From: Candidatus Falkowbacteria bacterium
GTDB taxonomy: Bacteria > Patescibacteriota > Patescibacteriia > Patescibacteriales > VMTK01
Assembly: GCA_013791585.1 (NCBI GenBank)
Contig: VMTK01000005.1
Coordinates: 18,484-82,483 of the forward strand
Reading direction: 5' to 3'
DNA: 64,000 bases
Shown: positions 4,843 through 58,258 of the stretch, piece by piece
Numbering within the stretch: position 1 is the first letter of the stretch
Layout of the letters: the number at the start of each line of letters is the position of its first letter
Notes under the pieces: generated by a model
Database searches by the model: none
Seen by the model: the letters and a program-made list of their open reading frames with translations, nothing else
Told to the model about the DNA's origin: nothing
Position numbers and translations under genes: made by a program

Positions 4843-6441
4843 TTAAATAAGGCTTCTTCCCGTCATTTCTTTCGGCTTCGGCAATCCCATGATTTTTAAT
4901 ATGGTCGGCGCTATGTCAGACAATATGCCTTGCGGCTGTATCAAGCTTAAATCCCCTCCCGGAACATCTTGGCTGCCCAATCTGCGGCCTTCAAATTGCT
5001 TGCCCGCCACAATAAACGGCACCGGACTGGCTGTGTGCTCCTTGTCAATCATGCCTGTCTGCATATTAAACATTACTTCAGCATTTCCGTGATCGGCAGT
5101 GACGATAATTACTCCGTCTTTTGCCAAAACGCTCTTTACTGTCTTGCCAAGGCATTTATCCACTGTTTCAATTGCCTTAACCGCTGCCGGAATATTGCCT
5201 GTATGCCCTACCATGTCCGCATTGGCGAAATTAATAAGAATAAAATCGTATAATTCTTCTTCTATCGCTTTAACAACTTTATCCGTAACTTCTATGGCGG
5301 ACATCTCCGGCTTTAAATCATATCTGTCAACATGCGGAGAAGGAACCAGCGCGTGATCCTCGCCCTTGCTTTTTTCCTCGCGGCCCCCGTTAAAAAAATA
5401 AGTTACATGGGCGTATTTTTCAGTTTCCGCTATGCGCATCTGCTTTAAATTTTTGGAAGCCAATATTTCTCCCAAAGTATTGTTTAAAATTTCAGGCGGG
5501 AAAGCTATTGCCGCGGGCAAATTTTTTTCATATTCAGTAAAACAAACAAAACGCAGATCTTTCAAATACTTTTTTCTGCTGAATTTGTCAAAACCGGGCA
5601 AAATAAAAGATTTTGTAATCTCCCTGGCCCTATCCGCCCGGTAATTAAAAAATATCACGCTGTCCGTTGATTCTATCAAAGAAACCGGCTGGCCGTTTTC
5701 CGTAATTACGGTTGGCGCGAATTCTTCGTCGTAAATTTTGTTTTGATAGCTTTTTGTAATTGCGCTTGCAACGTCATCGCTTTTATTTCCAATGCCCTCT
5801 GTCATTGCCAAGTATGCTTTTTCCACCCTATCCCAGCGATTATCTCTGTCCATCGCGTAAAACCTGCCGCAGACAGTGGCTATCCTGCCAGTACCATATT
5901 CCGCCATGCTTCGCTCAAGATCCTTGACAAAATTAATCCCGCTATTATAAGGAGTATCTCTGCCGTCTAAAATAACATGGACAAAAACTTTGCTTACTTT
6001 CTGCTCCTTGGCTAAAACCATCAGCGCCTGAAGATGCTCAAAAGACGCATGCACGCATCCGTTTGATGTTAATCCTATCAAATGCAGCTTGGATTTATTA
6101 TTCTTGGCATGTTCGCAGGCATCTACCAGCGCTTTATTTTTATAAAAACCGCTATCGCTGATAGCTTTGTTGATGCGGGGCAATTCTTGGTAGAGTATTC
6201 TGCCCAAACCCATATTTAAATGGCCTACTTCGCTATTGCCGGCTTCGCCCCATGGCAGCCCGACTGCTTCGCCTGAAGCGCGCAATGTCATGGATGGGTA
6301 TCTGGAAACCAATTCATTAAAAATCGGCGTCTTCGCCAATGTCACGGCATTGCCGCTGTAAGGCGGGGTAATCCCCCATCCGTCCAAAACAACCATAACT
6401 ACCGGTTTAGGACGATTAGATTGTAATTGGCTGTCTATCAT
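4843..6441 (-). CDS. gpmI: 2,3-bisphosphoglycerate-independent phosphoglycerate mutase (paralog 1)
   Basis: VVMVVLDGWGI...NSEVGHLNMGLGRILYQ and the metal-binding C-terminal half ...VTADHGNAEVM... identify iPGM. Confidence 0.9.
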   Translation of the reverse strand: MIDSQLQSNRPKPVVMVVLDGWGITPPYSGNAVTLAKTPIFNELVSRYPSMTLRASGEAVGLPWGEAGNSEVGHLNMGLGRILYQELPRINKAISDSGFYKNKALVDACEHAKNNKSKLHLIGLTSNGCVHASFEHLQALMVLAKEQKVSKVFVHVILDGRDTPYNSGINFVKDLERSMAEYGTGRIATVCGRFYAMDRDNRWDRVEKAYLAMTEGIGNKSDDVASAITKSYQNKIYDEEFAPTVITENGQPVSLIESTDSVIFFNYRADRAREITKSFILPGFDKFSRKKYLKDLRFVCFTEYEKNLPAAIAFPPEILNNTLGEILASKNLKQMRIAETEKYAHVTYFFNGGREEKSKGEDHALVPSPHVDRYDLKPEMSAIEVTDKVVKAIEEELYDFILINFANADMVGHTGNIPAAVKAIETVDKCLGKTVKSVLAKDGVIIVTADHGNAEVMFNMQTGMIDKEHTASPVPFIVAGKQFEGRRLGSQDVPGGDLSLIQPQGILSDIAPTILKIMGLPKPKEMTGRSLI

Positions 6442-6456
6442 ATCAATTTTTATATT

Positions 6457-8085
6457 TTATTTTATAAGACTTTTCCCCGTCATCTCCCGCGGCTTTTCCC
6501 GGCCTATTAATGCTAATATAGTCGGCGCTATATCGGCTAAAACGCCGCTTTTTTTTAATTTAATTTTATTTTTTAATTTTTTATTAACTATAATAAACGG
6601 CACCGGGCTGGATGAATGCTCCGTGTCTATCTCGCCTGTTTCCAAATTTATCATCTCCTCAATATTGCCATGATCGGCGGTGATCAGAACTGTGCCTTCA
6701 AGCTCTAAATAAGCATTGACAATTCTGCTTAAATGCTTGTCAATATGCCGGCAGCACTCTATCCCCGCCTCAAGATTCCCGGTATGCGCGACCATGTCGG
6801 GAGCGGCAAAATTTAAAACAGTAAAATCATATTTCCAACCTCTCCCCTGTCGCTTCGCTCCCCCCCCTCTCCTGATTAGGATAGGGGGCTGAGGGGTGAA
6901 GTTTTTAATTACCGCGCCAGTCAAGCCGGCTGAATTCATTGCCGGAGTTTCATCGTACGATCTTACATTAGGCGACTCAAGTATTATTCTGGACTCTCCG
7001 GCCACGGGACGCGCGTATCCGCCATTAAAAAAATAAGTGACATGAGAATGCTTTTCCTTTTCCGCTATATACAGCTGCTTTAAATCGCGCAATGCCATGG
7101 GCAAAGTTGCTTTTAGGTCAGCGCTGGGATACGCGGATAAAATACTGTCTAAATCCGGCCCAAAATCAGTCATAGCAGCGAATTTTAAATCCTTTAGGAC
7201 TTTCTGGCGCTTAAAAGCTCCCGGATTAATTTTATTAAAGTCATGCTGGACAAAAGCTTTGGCAAGCTGCCTGGCTCTGTCCGACCTTAGGTTGAAAAAA
7301 ATCACGCTGTCGCCGTCATTTATTCTGGGCAATTGCCTGCCATTGCTTTCTATCACATATGGCTGGATAAACTCATCGTTTTCGCCGCTGTTATAAGCTT
7401 TGGTTATCGCGTCCTGCGGGCTTTTGGCTTTTTTCCCCTTACCCAGTACCAAAGCATTATAAGCCTTTTCCGTGCGCCCCCATTTTTTCTTCCTGTCCAT
7501 GGCGTAAAATCTTCCCATAATCGTCGCTACGCGCTCATTTATTAAATAATCTCTTTGAACCGACTCTATTAATTTAAGAGCGGCGTATTGCGGGGAATCG
7601 CGTCCGTCGGTAAATAAATGCAGATAAACCTTTTTTACGTTATATCCTCTGGCTAATGTTACAAGCGCCAGCAGATGATCAGGATCGCTATGCGCGCTCA
7701 TGCCGTTGGAAAGCATGCCCATTAAATGCAGGGCTGATTTATTTTTCTCCACATGCTTGATGGCTTCAAGAAAAGCCGAGTTTTTAAAAAATGTTCCGTC
7801 ATTTATTGTTTTGCAAATTTTAACCGCGTCTTGCTCAACCACCCGCCCCGCCCCTATGTTAATATGCCCCGCCTCGCTATTCCCATCCTGCGCCGGAGGC
7901 AAGCCAACGCATTTCCCGTAAGCGCAAAGTTTTGCGCTTGGGTAATCCTTTATTATCTTATCTAAATAAGGAGTTTTTGACAATGCAATGGCATTGCCAC
8001 TGCTCGGCTTGGCGATCCCCCAGCCGTCCAAGATGATTAGTATCATTGGGAGATTATTGTTTTGATTTTTTTGTTTTATTGACAT
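6457..8085 (-). CDS. gpmI: 2,3-bisphosphoglycerate-independent phosphoglycerate mutase (paralog 2)
   Basis: LPMILIILDGWGI...NSEAGHINIGAGRVVEQ...ITADHGNIEEM is iPGM. The longest ORF starts at 8181, but its first 32 codons are built from the 8-nt repeat and overlap the eno C-terminus, so I place the start at the internal Met (MSIKQKNQ) at 8085. It contains an in-frame GC-rich palindromic insertion at 6841-6900. Confidence 0.8.
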   Translation of the reverse strand: MSIKQKNQNNNLPMILIILDGWGIAKPSSGNAIALSKTPYLDKIIKDYPSAKLCAYGKCVGLPPAQDGNSEAGHINIGAGRVVEQDAVKICKTINDGTFFKNSAFLEAIKHVEKNKSALHLMGMLSNGMSAHSDPDHLLALVTLARGYNVKKVYLHLFTDGRDSPQYAALKLIESVQRDYLINERVATIMGRFYAMDRKKKWGRTEKAYNALVLGKGKKAKSPQDAITKAYNSGENDEFIQPYVIESNGRQLPRINDGDSVIFFNLRSDRARQLAKAFVQHDFNKINPGAFKRQKVLKDLKFAAMTDFGPDLDSILSAYPSADLKATLPMALRDLKQLYIAEKEKHSHVTYFFNGGYARPVAGESRIILESPNVRSYDETPAMNSAGLTGAVIKNFTPQPPILIRRGGGAKRQGRGWKYDFTVLNFAAPDMVAHTGNLEAGIECCRHIDKHLSRIVNAYLELEGTVLITADHGNIEEMINLETGEIDTEHSSSPVPFIIVNKKLKNKIKLKKSGVLADIAPTILALIGREKPREMTGKSLIK

Positions 8086-8125
8086 AATAAAATCATAAAC
8101 AGAAACACTAAAACACTTTTGAATT

Positions 8126-9460
8126 TTAATTTGTTTTTGTGTTTTCCGTGTTTTTGTGTTTTTGTGTTTCAACATCTTCAATCTCCATCAACCGATTATA
8201 CTTAGCCAATCTCTCACCGCGCGACAATGATCCCGCCTTGATATAATCAGCGCCGATCGCTACCGCCAAATCAGCTATGAAATCATCGCAAGTCTCGCCG
8301 CTCCTGTGAGACGCCATTACTTTATAATTATGCTTTTGGGCCAATTTAACGCATTCAATTGTTTCAGTCAATGTGCCTATTTGGTTCGGCTTTATTAAAA
8401 TAGCGTTAGCCGCCCTGTCTTTCAGCCCGGCGCGCAAACGGGCAGTATTTGTCGTGAATAAATCATCTCCTATAATCATCATTTCATCCCCCAGCTCCCG
8501 CGTCAGCTCGCTCCATCCCTCCCAATCATCTTCCGCCAATCCGTCTTCAATGGAAATTATGGGATATTTCCTAAACCATTCATAATATAAATTTATTAAA
8601 GTAGCGGAAGTAAAATTCGCGCGGTCTAATTTAAAAATATATTTCTTGGTTTCTTTATTGTAAAGCCCTGAAGAGCCGACATCAATTCCAATGCCGAAAT
8701 CTTTTCCCGGACTATAGCCGGCGTTAACTCCCGCCGCCATAATAAGCTCAATCGCCTGAATGCTGGAAACAATATCCGGCGCGTAGCCGCCTTCGCTGCC
8801 AACATCAGTATCAAAGCCGGCTTTCCTTAAAACCCGCCCCAATTCATGAAATATTTCCGCGCCCATCCTAACCATTTCCGCAAAACTTTTAATTTGAGCT
8901 CCCCTCTCCCGTGAGGCGCGAGCGGGAGAGGGGTTGGGGGTGAGGGGAATTATCATGAATTCTTGAAAATCCAAATTAGTATCCGCATGTTTGCCGCCGT
9001 TAAAAATATTAAAAGATGGAGTTGGCATCGCATAACGCGTAACGCGTAACGCATAACACTTATTTATATATTCATATAATTCTTGGTTTTTAGACATGGC
9101 CGCGGCGCGGGCGCAGGCAAAGGATACGCTTAAAATAGCGTTGGCGCCTAATCTTTTTTTGTTTTTCGTCCCGTCCAGTTTTATCATTGTTTCATCTATC
9201 TTTTCTTGTTCGCTTGCATCAACTCCTTTTAATTCAGGCCCTATTTTTTCTTGAACATTTTTTACCGCTTTCAGCGCTCCCAAGCCGCCGTAGCGCTTAT
9301 TGCCATCGCGCAATTCCAACGCTTCATGAATTCCCGTGGAAGCGCCGGAAGGCGCGCTGGCTTTGGCGATTATGCCATTATCCAGAATAACTTTTGTTTC
9401 AATTGTCGGATTGCCGCGCGAATCCAAAATTTCGCGGGCGGTTATTTGTTTGATTTTCAT
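8126..9460 (-). CDS. eno: Enolase
   Basis: MKIKQITAREILDSRGNPTIETKVILDNGIIAKASAPSGASTGIHEALELRDG is canonical enolase. It carries two in-frame repeat insertions (palindromic element 8898-8952; TTATGCG heptamers 9020-9055) and a C-terminal tail encoded by the 8-nt repeat. Confidence 0.95.
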   Translation of the reverse strand: MKIKQITAREILDSRGNPTIETKVILDNGIIAKASAPSGASTGIHEALELRDGNKRYGGLGALKAVKNVQEKIGPELKGVDASEQEKIDETMIKLDGTKNKKRLGANAILSVSFACARAAAMSKNQELYEYINKCYALRVTRYAMPTPSFNIFNGGKHADTNLDFQEFMIIPLTPNPSPARASRERGAQIKSFAEMVRMGAEIFHELGRVLRKAGFDTDVGSEGGYAPDIVSSIQAIELIMAAGVNAGYSPGKDFGIGIDVGSSGLYNKETKKYIFKLDRANFTSATLINLYYEWFRKYPIISIEDGLAEDDWEGWSELTRELGDEMMIIGDDLFTTNTARLRAGLKDRAANAILIKPNQIGTLTETIECVKLAQKHNYKVMASHRSGETCDDFIADLAVAIGADYIKAGSLSRGERLAKYNRLMEIEDVETQKHKNTENTKTN

Positions 9461-9608
9461 ATAAAATAAATAAGAACGAGAAGAAAAATAAGGTAAATAA
9501 GAAGCAAGCTGCGTCTTATTTTTATTTTTCTCATTTATCTTTTTATTTCCCGATGTGCGAATCAGGATCCCGAATTCTGCGTTAGCAGAACATCGGGGCT
9601 TATTTTTC

Positions 9609-10580
9609 TTAAAATATTAATAATTTTCCTTCCCCGGCCGGGTTGTAGCCATTCTTAACTTCATCACCGTCTGAATATCCGTCATTGTCCGTGTCGCTTA
9701 ATTCCGAATTTGTAAAATAAATATTATTCTCATCATAGTCAGAAAGACCGTCATCATCAGAATCTATTAAATTTGAACATTGTTCATCTAAGCAGCTACT
9801 TTTTAACTGCTCATCGCGATTTTTACCCATATCAAATTCTTCATCGCAATCTTCAGGGCAATTGCATTTATTTTCCCATTCTTCACAGATTGAATTTCCA
9901 CACTCAGAACATACTGTTCCAACATCAAATAAATTGTAACATTCTCCATCTTTGTAATCCTTGACAGGAATTTTTAACAACCCCTCACAACAACTGTTAG
10001 ATCCAATATAGATTCCATGACTATATTTATCCGCGCTTTCTCCTGCAGAAATACAAGATTTTTCATTATCATGCTCAGCAAACTCGCATTTATTATCCTC
10101 GCAAACCGCTTTTCCTTCTTGGCAAGCATACAGAGTAATGCAAGCTCTATTGCCGCAATTTTCATTTAAATTTTTCTCCCACTCATCAAGATAAAGCAGG
10201 TTAATCGCGGTCTGCGTTCCGCCGGAATTGCAGCTGCAGCAGTCTTCCCGCGTTTCAGCGCAGTCTGAATTATTCAAACATTTTTTCCATTCATCAAACA
10301 AAGCTATTTTTTTCTGACTATTTCTTTTTTCAGGAATGCCGGCGATATTCTCCTGTAACTTTCCCGTGATGCTGATTATGTCCTCTAAAATATATTGGCT
10401 CGCGTACATTGCGATCATAGCCGCTAAAAAACTGGCGGAAATTCCAACAACTAAATATATTCTGCCTCGCCGCCTGCCGTCTTTTTCCAGCTTATTTACT
10501 CTTTCGTTTAAGACATTGCCTTCATTGCTCGGCTGCTCAATAATTTGTTGATTATGATTTTTTTTAAAGATGTTGAACAT
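9609..10580 (-). CDS. Membrane-anchored Cys-rich protein with C-terminal thrombospondin-type-3-like Ca-binding repeats
   Basis: It has an N-terminal TM segment and many Cys residues. The C-terminus has two DxDxDG-type motifs (DSDDDGLSDYDE and DTDNDGYSDGDE). Confidence 0.5.
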   Translation of the reverse strand: MFNIFKKNHNQQIIEQPSNEGNVLNERVNKLEKDGRRRGRIYLVVGISASFLAAMIAMYASQYILEDIISITGKLQENIAGIPEKRNSQKKIALFDEWKKCLNNSDCAETREDCCSCNSGGTQTAINLLYLDEWEKNLNENCGNRACITLYACQEGKAVCEDNKCEFAEHDNEKSCISAGESADKYSHGIYIGSNSCCEGLLKIPVKDYKDGECYNLFDVGTVCSECGNSICEEWENKCNCPEDCDEEFDMGKNRDEQLKSSCLDEQCSNLIDSDDDGLSDYDENNIYFTNSELSDTDNDGYSDGDEVKNGYNPAGEGKLLIF

Positions 10581-10614
10581 ATTGTTATAAAAAAAATAAA
10601 ATTTTTGCCTATAA

Positions 10615-10712
10615 TTTCTTATTTTTATTATTTTATTATTTTATTATTTTTATTATTTTATTATTTTTATTATTTTATTATTTTTATTATTTTATTATTT
10701 TATTTCACAATC
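10615..10712. repeat. (ATTATTTT)n microsatellite, about 12 units
   Basis: Direct tandem repeat ttattttattatttt... in the gap between the pgk stop and the upstream gene. Confidence 0.9.
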
Positions 10713-11992
10713 CCTTTCAGCCCGGGCATTTTTTCTCCGCTTAAAAAGGCCAGCATGGCTCCTCCGCCGGTTGATACCCAGTCAACATAATCAATCATTT
10801 TTGTCTGCCTTAAAGCTTCCACTGTTTCCCCTCCTCCAACTATTCCAAACGCGCGGCCCCGCGAACGGGACGCCACTGCGCGGGCGATTGACAAAGTGCC
10901 ATGCTTGAAATTGTCTTGTTCAAACATTCCCATCGGCCCGTTCCAAACTATAGTATTGGCTTTTTTTATAAAACCGGAATACAATCCTATGGTTTTGGGG
11001 CCGATATCTAAAATCTTCTCGCTCTTTTTTACATCGTACGCGTTTTTAACTTCCGGCTCTTTATTTCCTTTGCCTTTGCCGACCACAACATCTATCGGCA
11101 AAATAATATTTGCGCCGCCGCCGCGATTTTTATTTTTCAATGCTTTCGCGAGCGTAACATTTTTTTCATCCGCTGCCGACTTGCCGATTTCCATGCCGTG
11201 AGCCGCGAAAAAATTATTAGCCAAGGCCCCGCCGATTAAAATATGGCTCGCTTTCCTGCGCAGTTTTTTTATTAATTTTATTTTAGTGTTAATTTTAGCT
11301 CCGCCGATTACCACAATCAGCGGCTTTTTAGGAAACAGGACTTTGCTTAAATTTTCCAGCTCTTCTTGCAGAAGCAGGCCGGCATACGAAGGTAAATATC
11401 TTTTTATCGCGCTTAATGAAGCATGCTTCCTATGGCTTGCGGCAAAAGCGTTATTAACATAAACCCCGCGCCTTTTAGGCAGAATATTTTTAATATTGTT
11501 AGACAGCTGTCCAAAAGGCGCGGGGTGAATATCAGCCAAACGAGATAATCGCTTGGCGAATTTTTTATCATTTTGCTCTTCCTCTTTATGAAATCTAAGA
11601 TTTTCAAGAAGCATTATTTCCCCTTCTTTTAATTTACCTGCTTCTTCCTCTGTCTTTTTCCCTATGCAATCAGGAACAAATTTTATTCTCTTGCCCAAAA
11701 TCTTGCCCAGCCGAACAGCAATCGGCTTAACAGAATGTGTTTTTGTGTTTTTGTGTTTTTGTGTTTTTGTGTTTGCGCGCGGCCGCCCCAAATGCGTTGC
11801 GATAATTATCTTGCATTTATGCCTCAAAAGAAAACGGATAGTCGGCAAGCAAGAAATTATCTTATAATCATCCAATATATCCGACATCCGACATCCGACA
11901 TCCGACATCCGAAATGGAACATTAAAATCAGCCCGTAAAAAAACTCTTTTGCCTTTTATGTTTTTGGCGTTTCTAATTGATTTAATCTTCAT
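10700..11992 (-). CDS. pgk: Phosphoglycerate kinase
   Basis: KGKRVFLRADFNVP, LENLRFHKEEE and C-terminal GGGAMLAFLSGEKMPGLK are pgk motifs. It carries in-frame repeat insertions RMSDVGCRMSDI (CGGATGT heptamers, 11876-11925) and TKTQKHKNTKT (8-mers, 11736-11775). Confidence 0.9.
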   Translation of the reverse strand: MKIKSIRNAKNIKGKRVFLRADFNVPFRMSDVGCRMSDILDDYKIISCLPTIRFLLRHKCKIIIATHLGRPRANTKTQKHKNTKTHSVKPIAVRLGKILGKRIKFVPDCIGKKTEEEAGKLKEGEIMLLENLRFHKEEEQNDKKFAKRLSRLADIHPAPFGQLSNNIKNILPKRRGVYVNNAFAASHRKHASLSAIKRYLPSYAGLLLQEELENLSKVLFPKKPLIVVIGGAKINTKIKLIKKLRRKASHILIGGALANNFFAAHGMEIGKSAADEKNVTLAKALKNKNRGGGANIILPIDVVVGKGKGNKEPEVKNAYDVKKSEKILDIGPKTIGLYSGFIKKANTIVWNGPMGMFEQDNFKHGTLSIARAVASRSRGRAFGIVGGGETVEALRQTKMIDYVDWVSTGGGAMLAFLSGEKMPGLKGIVK

Positions 11993-11998
11993 ATATTT

Positions 11999-12200
11999 AG
12001 GAATTACGCGCTTGAATATAATTTATACGCATTTTACATATACAGCTATCGCTTATATTAATATCTAAATTGTTACATTGCTAAATTGCTAAATTGTTTC
12101 AATGTCAGCAATTTAACAATGTAACAATTTAACAATATTTGCGGGGACTTTTCAAACAGGCAAAATAATGGTTTTAAAAATTTAGTATTCAAACGCGTTA
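11999..12200. mobile_element. MITE-like intergenic element with terminal inverted repeats and internal palindromes
   Basis: The left end ggaattacgcgcttgaatataatttatacgcatttt and the right end tagtattcaaacgcgtta are partial reverse complements. There is an internal palindrome aaattgttacattg...caatgtaacaattt. The same termini recur at 47351-47585. Confidence 0.5.
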
Positions 12201-32569: not shown

Positions 32570-32810
32570 TGTCGCAATTACTGAACGAAGCTCGAACCTT
32601 TTTTGAACAAAACTCCGACTGATTGCTCCCGCCGTTGGCGGGACGGCAGAAACTAAACGCTCGGGCGGGCAAAAAGCGAAGTCCCATACCGAACTTGTTC
32701 TGGTGCGGGGGAAGGGGGTTGGGGGGAAGGAATTTTTGCCCGCCCTTGCTTTCCGATTCCAATTTTTCCGCCGCCGCCGCATTTCGTGCCAGTGAAACTG
32801 GCGCGCCGCC
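32570..32810 (+). ncRNA. GC-rich structured repeat element, copy 1 (inverted relative to copies 2 and 3)
   Basis: It is the reverse complement of 35643-35880 and of 46543-46826. Conserved core gggcgggcaaaaa...tttttgcccgccc plus hairpins with compensatory substitutions. The embedded ORFs are taken to be spurious. Confidence 0.5.
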
Positions 32811-35642: not shown

Positions 35643-36070
35643 GGCGGCGCATTTCGCAAAGCGAAATACGAAATTCGGCGGCGGCGGAAAAATCGGAATC
35701 GGAAAGCAAGGGCGGGCAAAAATTCCTTCCCCCCAACCCCCTTCCCCCGCACCAGAACAAGTTCGGTATGGGACTTCGCTTTTTGCCCGCCCGAGCGTTC
35801 AGTTTCTGCCGTCCCGCCAACGGCGGGAGCAATCAGTCGGAGTTTTGTTCAAAAAAGGTTCAAAATTAAAAAAGCAATTCCGCCCCTAAATTCAAAGGCA
35901 AAGGCGGGCAAAAAAGGAAGGGGTTTTTTTTTGGGGGGGGAGGGAAATTTTTGCCCGCCGTGCCTTCCTCCCGCCGGAGCATGTCCCGCACACCGATGCG
36001 GGAACGGGCTAATCCGCCTCTTTTTTAAGCCAAGATTATTTTTCGTGCCAATATCATTGGCGCGCCGCCT
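35643..36070 (-). ncRNA. GC-rich structured repeat element, copy 2 (composite; contains a second degenerate core)
   Basis: It shares the core with copies 1 and 3 and sits about 100-500 nt upstream of the XRE gene. Confidence 0.5.
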
Positions 36071-47603: not shown

Positions 47604-47825
47604 TAGATCCTATCATTAAAAAAGTGGACCTGAGGGGATTCGAACCCCTTACCCCCGCAACTTGCCCCGCCCCAAATTTCTGTGGACTCAGGGAGATTTG
47701 AACTCCCGGCCTCCGCAATGCGAATGCGGCGCTCTACCAACTGAGCTATGAGCCCTTGTAAAAATCATTAATTAAAATATATTTGTTAGACAACTAATTT
47801 GGGGCGGGGTGAAAATGCGATGCTC
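47604..47825 (-). tRNA. Interrupted tRNA(UUC)-like gene: exon 1 at 47789-47825, exon 2 at 47604-47639, with a 149-nt hairpin-flanked insert at position 37/38 (possibly a pseudogene)
   Basis: The halves GGGCCTGTAGCTCAGTTGGTAGAGCATCGCATTTTCA and TTGCGGGGGTAAGGGGTTCGAATCCCCTCAGGTCCA fold into a complete cloverleaf: 7-bp acceptor stem with G3:U70, D, anticodon and T arms, and loop TTTTCAT. The insert is closed by CCCCGCCCCAAATT / AATTTGGGGCGGGG and contains tRNA-Ala. Confidence 0.45.
47662..47734 (-). tRNA. tRNA-Ala (anticodon CGC), G3:U70 present, CCA not encoded
   Basis: GGGCTCA-TA-GCTC-AGTTGGTA-GAGC-G-CCGCA-TTCGCAT-TGCGG-AGGCC-GGGAG-TTCAAAT-CTCCC-TGAGTCC-A. Confidence 0.85.
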
Positions 47826-47917
47826 TACCAACTGAGCTACAGGCCCTTTTGAATTTTCGATTTTAGATTTTAAATTTTCGATTAAAACTTTAAAATAAAA
47901 ATCTTATTAATCATATA

Positions 47918-47983
47918 AACCCCGCACCTTTTGAGCAGTTGTTTTTCTGCATCAAAGATGCTCTGCTCAAAAGGTGCGGGGTT
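47918..47983. terminator. 21-bp-stem GC-rich hairpin 3' of the ppiB-like gene (family AACCCCGCACCTTTT / AAAAGGTGCGGGGTT)
   Basis: aaccccgcaccttttgagcag-(loop)-ctgctcaaaaggtgcggggtt. The same arms occur at 57862-57994 with an 85-nt loop. Confidence 0.45.
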
Positions 47984-48001
47984 TACATGATTTCTGTGAT
48001 G

Positions 48002-48721
48002 CTATTTTGCCAGCTCCATACTTTCAACCACCACATCCTCAATCGGATGATCTTGCTCATTAACCTCAACGGCTTCAATTTTTTCCACTATGTCCATGCC
48101 CTCAACAACATAGCCGAAATTAGTGTGCTTGTTGTCCAGCCATGGAGTCGCTTCACTGGTGACAATAAAAAATTGCGAGCCGTTGGTGTTAGGTCCGGAA
48201 TTCGCCATGGCCAAGCTTCCGCGAACTAATTTATGGCTGTTAAATTCATCTTGAAAACTGTAGCCCGGACCGCCCGTGCCGTCATTTGACCAATCATCGT
48301 CTTTGCTGTTCGGATCACCGCCTTGAATCATAAAATCCTTCATTACTCTATGAAATTTCGTGTTATTGTAAAATCCTATTTTAGCCAGATTTAAAAAATT
48401 ATTCACGGTTAACGGAGATTCCTGCCCGTAAAATTCCACTTTTATGTCGCCAAAATTAGTTTTGATAATCGCTTGATTGAATTCAGCGATTAAATTTTCC
48501 AGCTGAACCTGCTGCTGAGTTTGTTCGTCTGGCGCGGCGCTTGATTGTGTTTTTGCGGCCTGATTATTTTTTGTGTCATTAATTTTCTCCACGACATCGC
48601 TGTCGTCATAAGCGGAAGAATCGCTTGGAATATTTTTTTCATTCATAACTTTTTTTTGCGGAGCGGAAGAGCACCCTGTAATTAAAATTAATAAACTGAA
48701 TAATAATAAAAAAATCTTCAT
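48002..48721 (-). CDS. ppiB: Cyclophilin-type peptidyl-prolyl cis-trans isomerase, lipoprotein
   Basis: Lipobox LILITGCSS. Cyclophilin motifs FHRVMKDFMIQGGDP...GSLAMANSGPNTNGSQFFIV. Confidence 0.9.
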   Translation of the reverse strand: MKIFLLLFSLLILITGCSSAPQKKVMNEKNIPSDSSAYDDSDVVEKINDTKNNQAAKTQSSAAPDEQTQQQVQLENLIAEFNQAIIKTNFGDIKVEFYGQESPLTVNNFLNLAKIGFYNNTKFHRVMKDFMIQGGDPNSKDDDWSNDGTGGPGYSFQDEFNSHKLVRGSLAMANSGPNTNGSQFFIVTSEATPWLDNKHTNFGYVVEGMDIVEKIEAVEVNEQDHPIEDVVVESMELAK

Positions 48722-48805: not shown

Positions 48806-50380
48806 TCACTTCACCCAAAATTCTTTCTTCAGTTCGCTGTCATCTTCCATTTTTCTGTCTTCAATTTTTTCTTTGGCTTGGCCGCGCAATTCTTTTAATT
48901 CCATTTTATTCAATTCTTGGCTTCTGTTTTCTAAATATTCTTTATTATTCAGATCAGGATCATCAACCACTTCGGACAGCAAAACATCCAAAATAGCGCC
49001 GATTTTAGGACTTGGCTGGATTTTTAATAATTTCATTAATTCGTCTCCGTTTATTTTCAGCATTTTTACGGACAGCGGATCCTGGCGCACTTTTTCCATC
49101 ATATATTCCAGATGGCGGAGCTTATACGGCTTGGCTTTCGGCACGCCGGAACCGAGCCGGTCCGCTATCCGCAGATCAATCAAGTCTTTCAAGTTTTCTT
49201 CTCCTACTTTTTTAATCAAGCGCCGCACCGAGCTGGCTGTCACTTCATCAACATTATAATAAAACATGTGGTTGCGTATCAAGGCCGCGACTTTTTCAAT
49301 CTCATCATTGGAAAACTTCATCCGGCTCATAATCTTCTTGGCGATTTTCGCGCCTACTATGTCATGATTATAAAAAGTGGCGCCGCCGTTGATAATTTTT
49401 TTTGTCTGCGGCTTGGCAATATCATGAAGCAGCGCGGCAAGCTTGACGCGCCAATCATTGCTTGGACAGAATTTCAATGACAATACGCAATGCCTGAAAA
49501 CAGAATGAATATGATGCTTGCATTGCCCCACCCCCACTCCTCTTTCCAGCTCCGGCATAATATACTGAAGCAATTTATTTTGATGCAAAAACATTATGCC
49601 TTCGTAAGCTTTATTAGACTTTAATATTTTAATCAACTCATCTTTTATTCTTTCATTGGCAATGAATTTTATGCCGCCGGCCATTTTCTTTATCGCCCGC
49701 TCGGTTTTCGGCTCAATGTCAAAATTCAACTCGCAAGCCAGGCGAATCGCCCGCATCATGCGCAAAGCGTCTTCCTTAAACCTGTCGGACGGCTCCCCTA
49801 CCGCCCTGATAATCCTTTTTTTAATATCTTTCTGCCCGCCGAATAAATCAATAATTTGAAAATTATCATTTTTAACTCCCTTCTCCCGTGAAGCGATAGC
49901 GGGAGAGGGGCTGGGGGTGAGGGCAACAGCCATTGCGTTTATCGTAAAATCGCGCCTGGACAAATCCTTCTCCAAACTATCCTCAAATCTAACCTCATCC
50001 GGGTGCCTCCTGTCAGAATATCCCTGTTCACTGCGATAAGTCGTCACCTCAACAACTGTCTTGTTTTCGTCCTCCTTCGCTAATGCTTCGGCGGATAAAT
50101 GTTTTCGTGTTTTCGTGTTTTCGCGTTTTCGCGTTTTCGTGTTTTCGCGTTCTACGGGAATTATCACAGTCCCAAAAACATTCTCATACTTTCCATCAGG
50201 AAAAATCTTTAAAATTTCTTCCGGCTTGGCATTAGTGGTAATGTCCCAATCTTTAGGTATAATGGAGCGCAATAAATCACGCACGCATCCGCCAACCGCA
50301 TACGCTTCATGGCCTGCTTGCTCCAGTTTGTCTATTATATTTTTTATATATTCTGGTATTTTCATATTAAAACTATACAA
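48806..50380 (-). CDS. cca: CCA-adding enzyme / tRNA nucleotidyltransferase with HD domain
   Basis: N-terminal AGHEAYAVGGCVRDLLRSIIPKDWDITT (polymerase-beta NTase) and an HD domain (LHDIAKP...). In-frame 8-nt repeat (50099-50157, ENTKTRKRENTKTRKH) and palindromic element (49874-49925). Confidence 0.85.
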   Translation of the reverse strand: MYSFNMKIPEYIKNIIDKLEQAGHEAYAVGGCVRDLLRSIIPKDWDITTNAKPEEILKIFPDGKYENVFGTVIIPVERENTKTRKRENTKTRKHLSAEALAKEDENKTVVEVTTYRSEQGYSDRRHPDEVRFEDSLEKDLSRRDFTINAMAVALTPSPSPAIASREKGVKNDNFQIIDLFGGQKDIKKRIIRAVGEPSDRFKEDALRMMRAIRLACELNFDIEPKTERAIKKMAGGIKFIANERIKDELIKILKSNKAYEGIMFLHQNKLLQYIMPELERGVGVGQCKHHIHSVFRHCVLSLKFCPSNDWRVKLAALLHDIAKPQTKKIINGGATFYNHDIVGAKIAKKIMSRMKFSNDEIEKVAALIRNHMFYYNVDEVTASSVRRLIKKVGEENLKDLIDLRIADRLGSGVPKAKPYKLRHLEYMMEKVRQDPLSVKMLKINGDELMKLLKIQPSPKIGAILDVLLSEVVDDPDLNNKEYLENRSQELNKMELKELRGQAKEKIEDRKMEDDSELKKEFWVK

Positions 50381-55470: not shown

Positions 55471-55497
55471 AAGATTTATTATTTTATTATTTTATTA

Positions 55498-55660
55498 TTT
55501 TCGCGTTTTCGTGTTTTCGTGTTTTCGTGTTTTTGTGTTTTCGTGTTTTGAGGCGAAGCCGAGTGTTTTCGTGTTTTGAGGCGAAGCCGAGTGTTTTTGT
55601 GTTTTGAGGCGAAGCCGAGTGTTTTCGTGTTTTGAGGCGAAGCCGAGTGTTTTTGTGTTT
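55498..55660. repeat. Tandem repeat block: about five 8-nt units followed by four 28-bp units (gaggcgaagccgagtgttttYgtgtttt)
   Basis: Direct repeats with no spacers lie between ftsL and rsmH. Confidence 0.9.
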
Positions 55661-56624
55661 AAATCTTCTCCGCGGCCCTTAGCTTGGCGCTGCGGGATCT
55701 TGGATTTTTTGCGGCCTCCTCCTTGCCGGCCGCAACAATCCCGCGGGTTAATATTTTAAGCTGCTGTTTGTGTTCGCATTGGCAGACAGGATAACCGGGA
55801 GGGCAAAGGCAGCCGCGCGATTCTTGTCTGAAAAAATTCTTTGCAATCCTGTCTTCCAAGCTATGATAAGACACAACCACTATCTTTCCGCCTTGAGCCA
55901 ATAAATCAACGGCTTGGGGCAATGTTTTTTTTAAATTTTCAAGTTCATTGTTGGAAGCAATGCGCAATGCCTGAAAAGTTTTAGTGGCGCAATTAATCTT
56001 TTTTCTTTTATAAAAATCCGGAACCGCCTGATTTATGATTTCAACCAGCCGCCCTGTTGTTTTTATTGATTTTAATTCGCGGCATTCAACGATCTTCCGC
56101 GCGATTCTTTTAGCAAATCTCTCCTCCCCATATTCCCTAATAATCTTTTCCAATTTCTCCTGCTTCCAATTATTAACAATATCCTCTGTTGTCCGACATC
56201 CGAAGTCCGACATCTGACATCCGAAACTCATATTTAGCGGGGTATCCAGCTGAAAAGAAAATCCCCTGCTCCTGTCCGCGAGTTGAGCTGATGATAGCCC
56301 CAAATCAAAAACAATGCCATCAACCTTTTTTTTATGAAAATATTTTTTTGTAATTTTGGTGGTGTTTTTAAAATTTTCATTTGCTAAAATTATATTTTGA
56401 AATTTGAAATTTGAAATTTGAAATTTGGCGTTTTCTATCGCCATTTTATCCAAATCAATGGCAATAATTTTCCCTTTTGGCCCGATTCTTTCAGCGATTG
56501 CGACAGTGTAGCCGGCTCCGCCCAAAGTGCAGTCAATAAAATATTGTCCTGGCTGCGGATCAAGATAATTTAGCGCCTCATTCAGCATCACTGGAATATG
56601 TTTGTAATTCATTGATTTATCCAA
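55659..56624 (-). CDS. rsmH: 16S rRNA (cytosine1402-N4)-methyltransferase RsmH (MraW)
   Basis: HIPVMLNEALNYLDPQPGQYFIDCTLGGAGYT... identifies RsmH. In-frame heptamer insertions (NFKFQISNFKFQ at 56378-56425; MSDFGCRTT at 56190-56225). Confidence 0.9.
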   Translation of the reverse strand: MDKSMNYKHIPVMLNEALNYLDPQPGQYFIDCTLGGAGYTVAIAERIGPKGKIIAIDLDKMAIENAKFQISNFKFQNIILANENFKNTTKITKKYFHKKKVDGIVFDLGLSSAQLADRSRGFSFQLDTPLNMSFGCQMSDFGCRTTEDIVNNWKQEKLEKIIREYGEERFAKRIARKIVECRELKSIKTTGRLVEIINQAVPDFYKRKKINCATKTFQALRIASNNELENLKKTLPQAVDLLAQGGKIVVVSYHSLEDRIAKNFFRQESRGCLCPPGYPVCQCEHKQQLKILTRGIVAAGKEEAAKNPRSRSAKLRAAEKI

Positions 56625-56629
56625 AACTC

Positions 56630-56750
56630 GTTACGAGTTATGCGTTATGCGTTATGCGTTATGCGTTATGCGTTATGCGTTATGCGTTATGCGTTATGCG
56701 TTATGCGTTATGCGTTATGCGTTATGCGTTATGCGTTACGAGTTATGCAC
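56630..56750. repeat. Long TTATGCG heptamer array (about 15 units)
   Basis: gttatgcgttatgcg... lies immediately upstream of rsmH. Confidence 0.95.
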
Positions 56751-56916
56751 TATAAAACTAATGCTCTTGCTCGGTTATAAATAATACTGCGCAGCTGTAT
56801 GCTGTCAACAAAAGGAGCTTTAATCACTTTTACTTTAACACTGTGATTTTTATTTTCGCGCGTTGTTTCGCATTTAATTTTTCTTGTCATAGTTTTATTT
56901 TTTATTTGAATAATGT

Positions 56917-57731: not shown

Positions 57732-58258
57732 TTTTAAAATAATAAAATAATAAAATAATAAATTTTATGATGATTCATTTTGCATTTTTAATTTTGAACT
57801 GCTTAAGACCCAGGAGAAGCTTGACTGACTAAAAAATGTCTATCAAGCCCCTTCTTTACCTTAACCCCGCACCTTTTAAATGATTTACAGATTATAATTT
57901 TAATCAAATTGTTAGAAATTTCTTAATAAAATAAAAGTAAAGTTAACCGCAGAATAAACATTAAAATTTTTATCATTTAAAAGGTGCGGGGTTAATTATT
58001 AAAATTCGCTCCTGATTTTGGCCCATGAAGCATAGGCCATTCTCTGCGCCGATTTTACATCGGACTTTTTTGGGTTAGCGCGCAAAGTCTGGGCTAACCT
58101 GAATAATTTTTATTTTTATTTTAATATTTCTTATTTCTTGCCTTCACCACCATTCCCCACTTTTCACCAATCTTATTTAATCATACACCATTTTTACGCT
58201 GAAGTCAACCACTATGCGACACTTAACGATTGGCTAATGTAAGCTGAATTATGCAATA

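Follow-up and report, generated by a model that had tools for sequence, protein, structure and literature searches.

A resident tRNA-Ala(CGC) gene broken by a small insertion that carries a complete tRNA-Ala(CGC) in an uncultured groundwater bacterium

In an uncultured bacterium from groundwater, a tRNA-Ala(CGC) gene is broken in its anticodon loop by a short insertion that contains a second, complete tRNA-Ala(CGC). The resident gene is interrupted, the tRNA within the insertion is intact and has the same specificity, the insertion occurs with identical junctions in three host backgrounds, and the outer gene can decay. We consider it probable that the resident gene was inactivated by a non-autonomous mobile cassette that supplies its own replacement tRNA-Ala(CGC). 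It is a mini-insertion in a tRNA gene that spreads horizontally and makes good the loss it causes. We know of no equivalent, but its parts are familiar ones: inverted ends, a tRNA-gene target and restored function. The literature searched contains no description of a bacterial tRNA gene with a tRNA nested in it.

Results

Architecture of the nested locus

Coordinates are positions in the window, the whole 64,000-nt stretch of DNA that was analysed, and all features of the nested tRNA lie on its minus strand (Table 1). The original prediction had placed the structure at 47604-47825, which is 21 nt too low. The cassette consists, in order, of TTCA, a 14-nt GC-rich arm, a 40-nt leader, the tRNA-Ala(CGC), a 4-nt trailer, the complementary arm and CAAG, and its 153 nt hold no open reading frame. 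Every element of the original prediction is present in the sequence, among them the complete inner tRNA-Ala(CGC) and the 14-bp helix that closes the insert (arms at 47809-47796 and 47678-47665). The inner tRNA is called by ARAGORN and matches the Rfam tRNA model with 71.8 bits (E = 2.9e-15), and it has the cloverleaf, G3:U70, A73 and CGC anticodon expected of a tRNA-Ala. It differs from the outer tRNA at 16 of 73 positions, and all of the differences in stems are compensated.

Table 1. Positions of the parts of the nested tRNA locus in the window
Feature	Position	Strand	Sequence or contents	Remark
Nested structure, whole	47625-47846	minus		Present in nine independent assemblies
Outer 5' half as split at 37/38	47846-47810	minus	GGGCCTGTAGCTCAGTTGGTAGAGCATCGCATTTTCA	
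Outer 5' remnant (resident tRNA-Ala(CGC) positions 1-33)	47814..47846	minus	Acceptor 5' strand, D arm, anticodon stem 5' strand, U32-U33	33/33 identical to intact L007 gene
Insert at 37/38 split, 149 nt	47809-47661	minus		
Cassette, 153 nt	47661..47813	minus	TTCA ... CAAG	In place of CGCA (anticodon + A37)
Cassette ends			TTCACCCCGCCCCAAATT and AATTTGGRGCGGGGCAAG	
Left arm of 14-bp clamp (terminal inverted repeat)	47796..47809	minus	CCCCGCCCCAAATT	
Leader, 40 nt, from left arm to inner tRNA	47756..47795	minus		Sole variable part of the cassette
Inner tRNA-Ala(CGC)	47683..47755	minus	G3:U70, A73, no encoded CCA	ARAGORN and Rfam tRNA
Trailer, 4 nt, before right arm	47682-47679	minus	CAGA	
Right arm	47665..47678	minus	AATTTGGGGCGGGG	
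CAAG, 3' of right arm	47664-47661	minus	CAAG	
Outer 3' remnant (resident positions 38-73)	47625..47660	minus	TTGCGGGGGTAAGGGGTTCGAATCCCCTCAGGTCCA; anticodon stem 3' strand, variable loop, T arm, acceptor 3' strand, A73	36/36 identical to L007
Sigma-70-like promoter site, ~20 nt upstream of outer tRNA	47867..47894	minus	TTTAAA-16-TAAAAT	Putative function

ARAGORN, run with its intron option, misses the outer gene in place and recovers it after the inner tRNA has been excised; the joined halves are called as tRNA-Glu(ttc) with G3:U70. The minimum free energy (MFE) fold of a 243-nt transcript is a cloverleaf inside a cloverleaf, the two linked by the 14-bp helix (z-score -4.2, with 0 of 200 shuffled sequences as stable). 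At the junction, the predicted fold runs through a 1x1 U-U mismatch, 3 bp and a 2x1 internal loop into the 14 bp. Clamp and extended anticodon stem together form a helix of about 22 bp.

An empty site identifies the outer gene

Comparison with the orthologous locus in relatives revealed the empty site. The closest relative, L007, has an intact tRNA-Ala(CGC) at the matching position, which reads GGGCCTGTAGCTCAGTTGGTAGAGCATCGCATT-CGCA-TTGCGGGGGTAAGGGGTTCGAATCCCCTCAGGTCCA, that is, outer positions 1-33, CGCA and outer positions 38-73, with all 69 of the 69 common positions identical. The 200 nt that lead up to the intact gene in L007 are the same as those upstream of the outer tRNA. Because the intact gene matches the outer halves around CGCA, the comparison is decisive: the outer gene is the resident tRNA-Ala(CGC) and not a Glu tRNA. 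With 69 identical positions, the nested structure is not a product of chance. An alanine-identity tRNA that reads Glu codons, as had been suggested, is thus not what the locus encodes. The perfect cloverleaf with G3:U70 that had been described does form when the halves are joined, but its apparent UUC anticodon consists of the junction bases TTCA, which belong to the insert. Similarly, there is an insert where one of 149 nt had been placed, between nucleotides 37 and 38, but that split was an arbitrary choice: the intact gene sets the boundaries at 33/34 and 37/38, with 153 nt in place of CGCA. These boundaries also agree with the points where the near-identity of a distant carrier, L099, comes to an end. 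Between the empty and the filled site CGCA is lost and nothing is duplicated. A link between this first insertion and a second one just downstream was considered and dropped: the intact 3' half lies between them, which makes them two events.

L007 (empty) and L089 (filled) are 98-98.6% identical in their flanks, so that presence or absence of the cassette is a polymorphism among close relatives. The outer 3' remnant of L089 carries one change, T47C. Sliding identity shows a mosaic pattern in which one tract (48425-47855) is near-identical in three genomes; this indicates that these lineages recombine.

Neighbourhood and occurrence

The nested tRNA is flanked by genes for a CCA-adding enzyme (two genes upstream), a cyclophilin-type prolyl isomerase and a holin-like membrane protein, followed by tRNA-Pro(CGG). 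The best relatives of the cyclophilin come from metagenome-assembled genomes labelled Candidatus Falkowbacteria or Patescibacteria. The order cyclophilin, un-nested tRNA-Ala(CGC), holin-like gene is found in L090 and L092, and an un-nested tRNA-Ala(CGC) follows the cyclophilin in L097 and L098 as well as in L008, L009, L011, L023, L028, L101 and L007. On this comparison, the un-nested order is the ancestral state. The contig of L103 stops 62 nt past the cyclophilin gene.

The nested arrangement of the window is also present in eight contigs from ENA, JGI and Logan assemblies (L001, L002, L003, L005, L006, L087, L088 and L089). Overall, about 14 lineages were examined; three of them carry the nested form and are the only known host backgrounds of the cassette.

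The same cassette in a distant lineage

L099 and L100 are two independent assemblies of one lineage whose cyclophilin is 69-70% identical to that of the window in protein and 73.6% in DNA. The L099 cassette is identical to that of L089 at 153 of 154 positions (99.4%) and to that of the window at 150 of 153, and the inner tRNA is 100% identical in all three. Host-specific sequence lies on each side of the cassette, and both assemblies agree on it. Near-identity of the cassette amid a flanking gene of only 73.6% identity indicates horizontal movement. It also speaks against the nested duplication that the original prediction had listed among its options, as do the 16 differences among the 73 positions of the two tRNAs, in which the stem changes are compensated.

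In this lineage the outer gene has decayed. Its 5' half (tAGACCTGTTGCTCAGTTGGCAGAGCGCCGCATT) starts directly at the cyclophilin stop codon, and its 3' half is absent: CAAG is followed by TCTCTTGCATTTTTTTC, a terminator-like hairpin, beyond which lies an unrelated gene. Loss of the outer 3' half beside a perfectly conserved inner tRNA rules out a spliced outer tRNA. The decay indicates that the outer gene is dispensable. These contigs also show that the unit which was transferred extends exactly from TTCA to CAAG. Four sites vary between the cassettes of the window, L089 and L099. All 4 belong to the 40-nt leader, and the arms, ends and tRNA are without variation; the probability of this by chance is about (40/153)^4 = 0.005.

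The same ends around a different cargo

A further lineage, L096, has no close relatives in the protein database, and its cyclophilin is 71% identical to that of the window. Its own tRNA-Ala gene has TTTTCA-CCCCGCCCCAAATT and AATTTGGAGCGGGG-CAAG-TTG, in positions that match those of the window. The left arm is invariant in all carriers, L096 included, and the right arm has one mismatch (GGAG versus GGGG); the resulting C-A mismatch is uncompensated, so strict pairing of the clamp is not always kept. Between the arms the sequence is different. The 48-nt leader is unrelated to that of the window, and the inner tRNA-Ala(CGC) (64.1 bits) is a different one, 92.5% identical to the resident gene of L101. 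As a whole, the cassette is 72% identical to that of the window, and its MFE fold is again a nested double cloverleaf with a clamp. The two kinds of cassette share conserved ends of 18-19 nt around interiors that do not align with each other.

The outer halves of L096 differ from those of the window by three compensated stem changes and match the uninterrupted gene of L097, a relative of L096 (97.6% in the 3' half, 91.7% in the 5' half). Outer stems are lineage-specific up to 4-7 nt from the junctions, and flank identity of only 4-7 nt is too little for ordinary homologous recombination. These lineage-specific stems argue for insertion at a defined site.

A parallel case in tRNA-Pro

Nesting of a tRNA within its own kind is not limited to alanine. 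In L101 and L102, an intact tRNA-Pro(CGG) (62.4 bits) lies inside a decayed tRNA-Pro, which is broken after TTCGG in the anticodon loop by an insert closed with a 13-bp GC-rich clamp. The nested tRNA-Pro of L101 is too decayed for ARAGORN and was identified by eye. Relics of the nested tRNA-Pro kind are present in L008 and L097.

Searches for mobility genes, introns and further copies

Among the 52 open reading frames of the window we found no transposase, integrase or homing-endonuclease domain, and no splicing endonuclease or RNA ligase domain. The scan with Infernal intron models (cmscan of 46500-48300, both strands) gave no group I or group II match at E <= 10. Rfam scans at the gathering threshold of the L096, L099, L101, L007 and L089 loci returned tRNAs only, and tmRNA was rejected because its sole match was a 13-bit T-arm. 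Comparison of the filled site with the empty site of L007 revealed no target-site duplication, four bases having been lost instead. By hand comparison, the junctions fit neither integrase-type attL/attR sites nor serine-recombinase, IS200/IS605-type or integron attC sites.

There is no second copy of the cassette in the 64-kb window, and all copies in the 747 kb of DNA examined sit at the tRNA-Ala(CGC) gene adjacent to the cyclophilin. A search of these 747 kb for the arms with up to 3 mismatches, and for a short-loop version of the hairpin, matched only known carriers, and excision of the ARAGORN tRNAs followed by a rescan returned only the nested Ala cases. Exact matches to the inner tRNA in metagenome contigs were confined to the same locus. 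No free, circular or donor form of the cassette was found in the DNA examined or in viral contigs; the latter had no match to the inner tRNA halves, the arm pair, either cassette end or a hypothetical circular junction, and a phage collection gave generic tRNA similarity only.

Discussion

The comparative data favour one of the options raised by the original prediction, a tRNA gene disrupted by a tRNA-carrying mini-element. If a mobile cassette broke the resident gene and replaced it, inactivation would have taken place at the DNA level, by exchange of CGCA for 153 nt; the inner tRNA would now be the working gene and the outer halves leftovers. Transcription would start at the old promoter (47894-47867) and continue across the defunct 5' half. 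A single promoter-like site was called on the minus strand at the locus, upstream of the outer gene, and none in the leader, where a candidate, TTGTCT-17/18-TAATGA, was rejected for its poor match and unconserved spacing. We suggest that the 14-bp clamp keeps the inner fold apart from the very similar outer halves. The inner tRNA could then be freed by RNase P and a 3' processing enzyme, and CCA would be added by the enzyme encoded two genes upstream.

Between lineages, the cassette would always move into the anticodon loop of tRNA-Ala(CGC), with identical junctions. The most likely route would be a site- or structure-specific recombinase or transposase that acts in trans on the 18-19-nt ends. 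Were the cassette to circularise, its ends would create a 14 + 8 + 14 palindromic site, AATTTGGGGCGGGG-CAAGTTCA-CCCCGCCCCAAATT; the abutted cassette ends read GGGGCGGGGCAAGTTCACCCCGCCCC. Insertion would cost the host little because the cassette brings a replacement for the gene that it destroys. The match between cargo and target may reflect selection, with survival only of those insertions that replace what they destroy.

It is unlikely that a single accident gave rise to all copies, by a double-strand break in the anticodon loop, capture of a foreign tRNA-Ala(CGC) fragment and loss of 4 nt with possible TT microhomology, followed by spread through descent and through homologous recombination via the conserved tRNA flanks. 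Such an origin would suit the untidy junction (4 nt deleted, no target-site duplication, TT possible at both joints), the lack of a transposase among the 52 open reading frames of the window, the same type of locus for every copy and the recombination between lineages that is evident from their mosaic identity and the 48425-47855 tract. However, identity in L099 and L096 stops 4-7 nt beyond the cassette, far below what RecA-type recombination needs, and in every case the outer gene is similar to the intact gene found in its relatives. Conservation of the 18-19-nt ends around unalignable interiors and the parallel nested tRNA-Pro also count against an accident. Far less probable is that the nested architecture is kept for a purpose at the RNA level, either as a processing scaffold (for example an RNase III-type stem as around rRNAs) or as a two-piece, anticodon-less RNA that takes alanine by means of G3:U70. 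The outer halves have 0-1 changes in the window and L089 against 4 in the leader, two lineages retain an intact outer cloverleaf whose differences are compensated, and the helix of about 22 bp would suit a scaffold, yet the numbers of changes are too small to show selection. The compensated differences are shared by the intact genes of relatives, and are thus probably older than the insertion, while in L099 the 3' half and the upstream spacer are gone and the cassette is still perfect.

A genuine intron, with the 149-nt insert spliced out to yield an alanine-identity tRNA with UUC, is highly improbable. The spliced sequence would form a perfect cloverleaf, the last base of the insert is G, TTTTCA is conserved in three lineages, and tRNA genes of Patescibacteria commonly carry group I introns (PMC13011429). 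Nevertheless, the insert matches no group I or group II model at E <= 10, has no ribozyme core and is too short for one, half of it being tRNA. Nor does it have a bulge-helix-bulge (BHB) motif, whose register is incompatible with the 14-bp helix, since intron nt 2 would pair with the seventh nt from the 3' end (manual pairing). The 5' exon ends in A if the boundaries are placed at 37/38, a position for which no group I introns are reported in bacterial tRNA genes (PMC13011429). Moreover, the intron-less homologue reads CGC where removal of the insert gives UUC, and in L099 the 3' exon is absent. The least credible explanation, and one about which the original prediction had cautioned, is a metagenome assembly artefact that fused two tRNA-Ala genes. 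Assemblers can pass from one genome to another at conserved repeats such as tRNA genes. Nonetheless, the identical structure is found in at least nine contigs (the window and eight more) from different samples and assemblers, and for this reason a mis-assembly is ruled out; L099 and L100 give the same result independently, and sequence specific to the host lies to the left and right of the cassette.

How does a replacement-bearing cassette relate to known systems? Islands and prophages that target tRNA genes are tyrosine-integrase elements that use sublocations in the anticodon loop or T-loop. They are kilobases long and encode an integrase. Of the tRNA they exchange only the 3' part, which is then present as a direct repeat at the far end. 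The cassette shares with them the tRNA gene target and a sequence that preserves tRNA function after insertion. In contrast, it measures 153 nt, has no protein gene and keeps both old halves around a complete new gene; its flanks are the two halves of one gene, with no repeated 3' part. Miniature inverted-repeat transposable elements (MITEs) are also small and non-coding, with perfect terminal inverted repeats, presence or absence in close strains and horizontal spread. In the cassette, the inverted repeats are a perfect 14 bp, conserved in L089, L099 and L096, and both presence/absence (L007 and L089) and copies more alike than their hosts (L099 and L089) are seen. Unlike MITEs, it lacks a target-site duplication, removes 4 nt, has a single copy per genome region, is strictly confined to one target gene and carries as cargo a functional gene that matches the target; neither multiple sites (747 kb) nor an autonomous transposase relative (window) was found.

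A GC-rich helix of about 14 bp next to position 37/38 also holds tRNA halves together in the split tRNA genes of Nanoarchaeum equitans. In a BHB motif, two 3-nt bulges contain the splice sites and are separated by 4 bp. The likeness to split tRNAs and archaeal BHB introns lies in this ~14-bp helix adjoining 37/38; the locus described here differs in that it belongs to a bacterium, has no BHB, has halves that come from one disrupted gene and has one carrier in which one half is missing.

Bacterial rRNA intervening sequences, which are excised by RNase III without re-ligation, turn the apical loop of a conserved helix into a longer stem-loop. Non-intron insertions are also frequent in the rRNA genes of Candidate Phyla Radiation (CPR) bacteria (PMC11270868). 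As in the cassette, occurrence is patchy and the stem is conserved as the interior varies. At our locus, CGCA, which forms the tip of the anticodon loop, has given way to a clamp-closed insert that is patchy among relatives. Inserts in rRNA need no replacement gene because rRNA tolerates fragmentation. A break in the anticodon loop, by contrast, kills a tRNA, and at this locus a substitute tRNA sits in the loop of the inserted stem. The group I introns of tRNA genes in Patescibacteria (PMC13011429) resemble the cassette in phylum, in their anticodon-loop site, in their sporadic spread and in that gene finders miss or mislabel the host gene. The cassette differs in its 153 nt without a ribozyme core, in that its removal does not restore the anticodon and in that it carries a whole replacement tRNA rather than splicing itself out; tRNA-Ala is absent from the 25 intron-carrying tRNA genes in Table 1 of that study (PMC13011429).

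It is tempting to speculate, and we do so tentatively, that Patescibacteria harbour a class of miniature 'swap cassettes' of 150-170 nt. These would be non-coding, with GC-rich inverted ends, an anticodon-loop target and an exchangeable tRNA cargo of the same specificity as the target, so that the target is replaced and the cell survives. They would include at least tRNA-Ala(CGC) and tRNA-Pro(CGG), would move between lineages and would be mobilised in trans by an enzyme that recognises their ends or the hairpin. Repeated rounds of such exchange would account for the unusually fast turnover of tRNA gene sequences at the locus and for relic halves. The chance is substantial that the cassette, when its mobility comes to be understood, will prove to stand for a new class.

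In practical terms, a locus of this type can lead gene finders to the false call of an intron-containing tRNA-Glu(UUC) that has alanine identity. ARAGORN makes this call once the inner tRNA is masked, and it could be mistaken for a mistranslating or recoding tRNA. Introns persist in essential RNA genes by splicing themselves out, and integrating islands do so by rebuilding the end of the gene. If our reading is true, there would be a third way for a mobile insertion to live in an essential RNA gene, which is to bring a whole spare copy. It would explain how tRNA genes of genome-reduced bacteria come to be replaced in place by foreign versions, why neighbouring lineages have very different tRNA-Ala(CGC) sequences at one conserved locus, and why relic tRNA halves lie beside intact tRNAs in related contigs.

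A second insertion beside the nested tRNA-Ala and other repeats of the window

The stretch that separates the outer tRNA from the holin-like gene contains a second insertion, about 265 nt long, delimited by the inverted repeat TACGCGTTTGAATA / TATTCAAACGCGTA and missing in L007, the closest relative with an intact tRNA-Ala(CGC). Related ends or pieces are found at three other places in the window, and for this reason the insertion looks like a member of a MITE-type repeat family. It houses a palindromic piece of 51 nt (CCCGATGTGCGAATCGGG...CATCGGGAC), whose presence in the window and absence from L087 and L089, both of which carry the nested arrangement, make it a further small insertion polymorphism.

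A ~170-nt repeat is present in the window in three copies, which are 90-93% identical, hold a C-rich segment of 57 nt between the arms GGGCGGGCAAAAA / TTTTTGCCCGCCC, and include one copy placed directly downstream of tRNA-Pro(CGG). Within the 3' end of this tRNA begins a 35-bp inverted repeat whose arms match perfectly around a 12-nt loop; microRNA-family matches to it in Rfam are spurious and caused by the inverted repeat itself. The tRNA is also adjoined by a strain-variable defence island that encodes an HTH regulator, DUF5655, an EcoRV-type endonuclease with a D12 methyltransferase, DruA, NurA and a HerA-like ATPase. In L002, another contig with the nested arrangement, the holin-like gene is instead followed by a Bac_transf (bacterial sugar transferase family) gene.

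Elsewhere, two long terminator-like hairpins have the motif AACCCCGCACCTTTT in common. The first comes after the cyclophilin gene, and L007 has an extra 29-nt hairpin next to it. Tandem repeats of 7-8 nt and 28 nt, such as TTTTCGTG, GCGTTAT and TTATTATT, lie directly upstream of genes in many intergenic regions of the window, and two neighbouring paralogous genes for cofactor-independent phosphoglycerate mutase reach about 77-79% DNA identity in places.

Coordinates of the features discussed in this section
Feature	Sequence	Positions	Strand
Second insertion	window	47346-47610	minus
Ends or pieces related to it	window	11994-12035; 12173-12198; 9481-9623	
51-nt palindromic piece	window	47423-47473	
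~170-nt repeat	window	32571-32760; 35696-35885; 46650-46830	
35-bp inverted repeat	window	46824-46905	
Defence island	window	39189-46394	
Terminator-like hairpins	window	47909-47992; 57861-57995	
Tandem repeats (examples)	window	50094-50160; 55474-55675; 56601-56775; 10596-10720	
Phosphoglycerate mutase genes	window	4843-6441; 6457-8181	
Nested tRNA-Pro(CGG)	L101 (same in L102)	2649-2876	
tRNA-Pro(CGG)-like sequence	L008	about 4859-4935	

Nested and hybrid tRNA-Pro(CGG) in relatives

In the relatives L101 and L102, a decayed tRNA-Pro holds an intact tRNA-Pro(CGG) in its anticodon loop, with a GC-rich clamp closing the insert. The D region of the decayed outer tRNA contains a 34-nt CCGCC...GGCGG hairpin, and the T arm has been remodelled. 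Relics of this nested tRNA-Pro are found in L008 and L097, two further relatives with an un-nested tRNA-Ala(CGC). Directly after its tRNA-Ala, L008 has a tRNA-Pro(CGG)-like sequence for which ARAGORN gave no call. Its 5' two-thirds are similar to the tRNA-Pro of L096, a third lineage with a nested tRNA-Ala, and its 3' end to the inner tRNA-Pro of L101; it looks like a hybrid or decayed gene.
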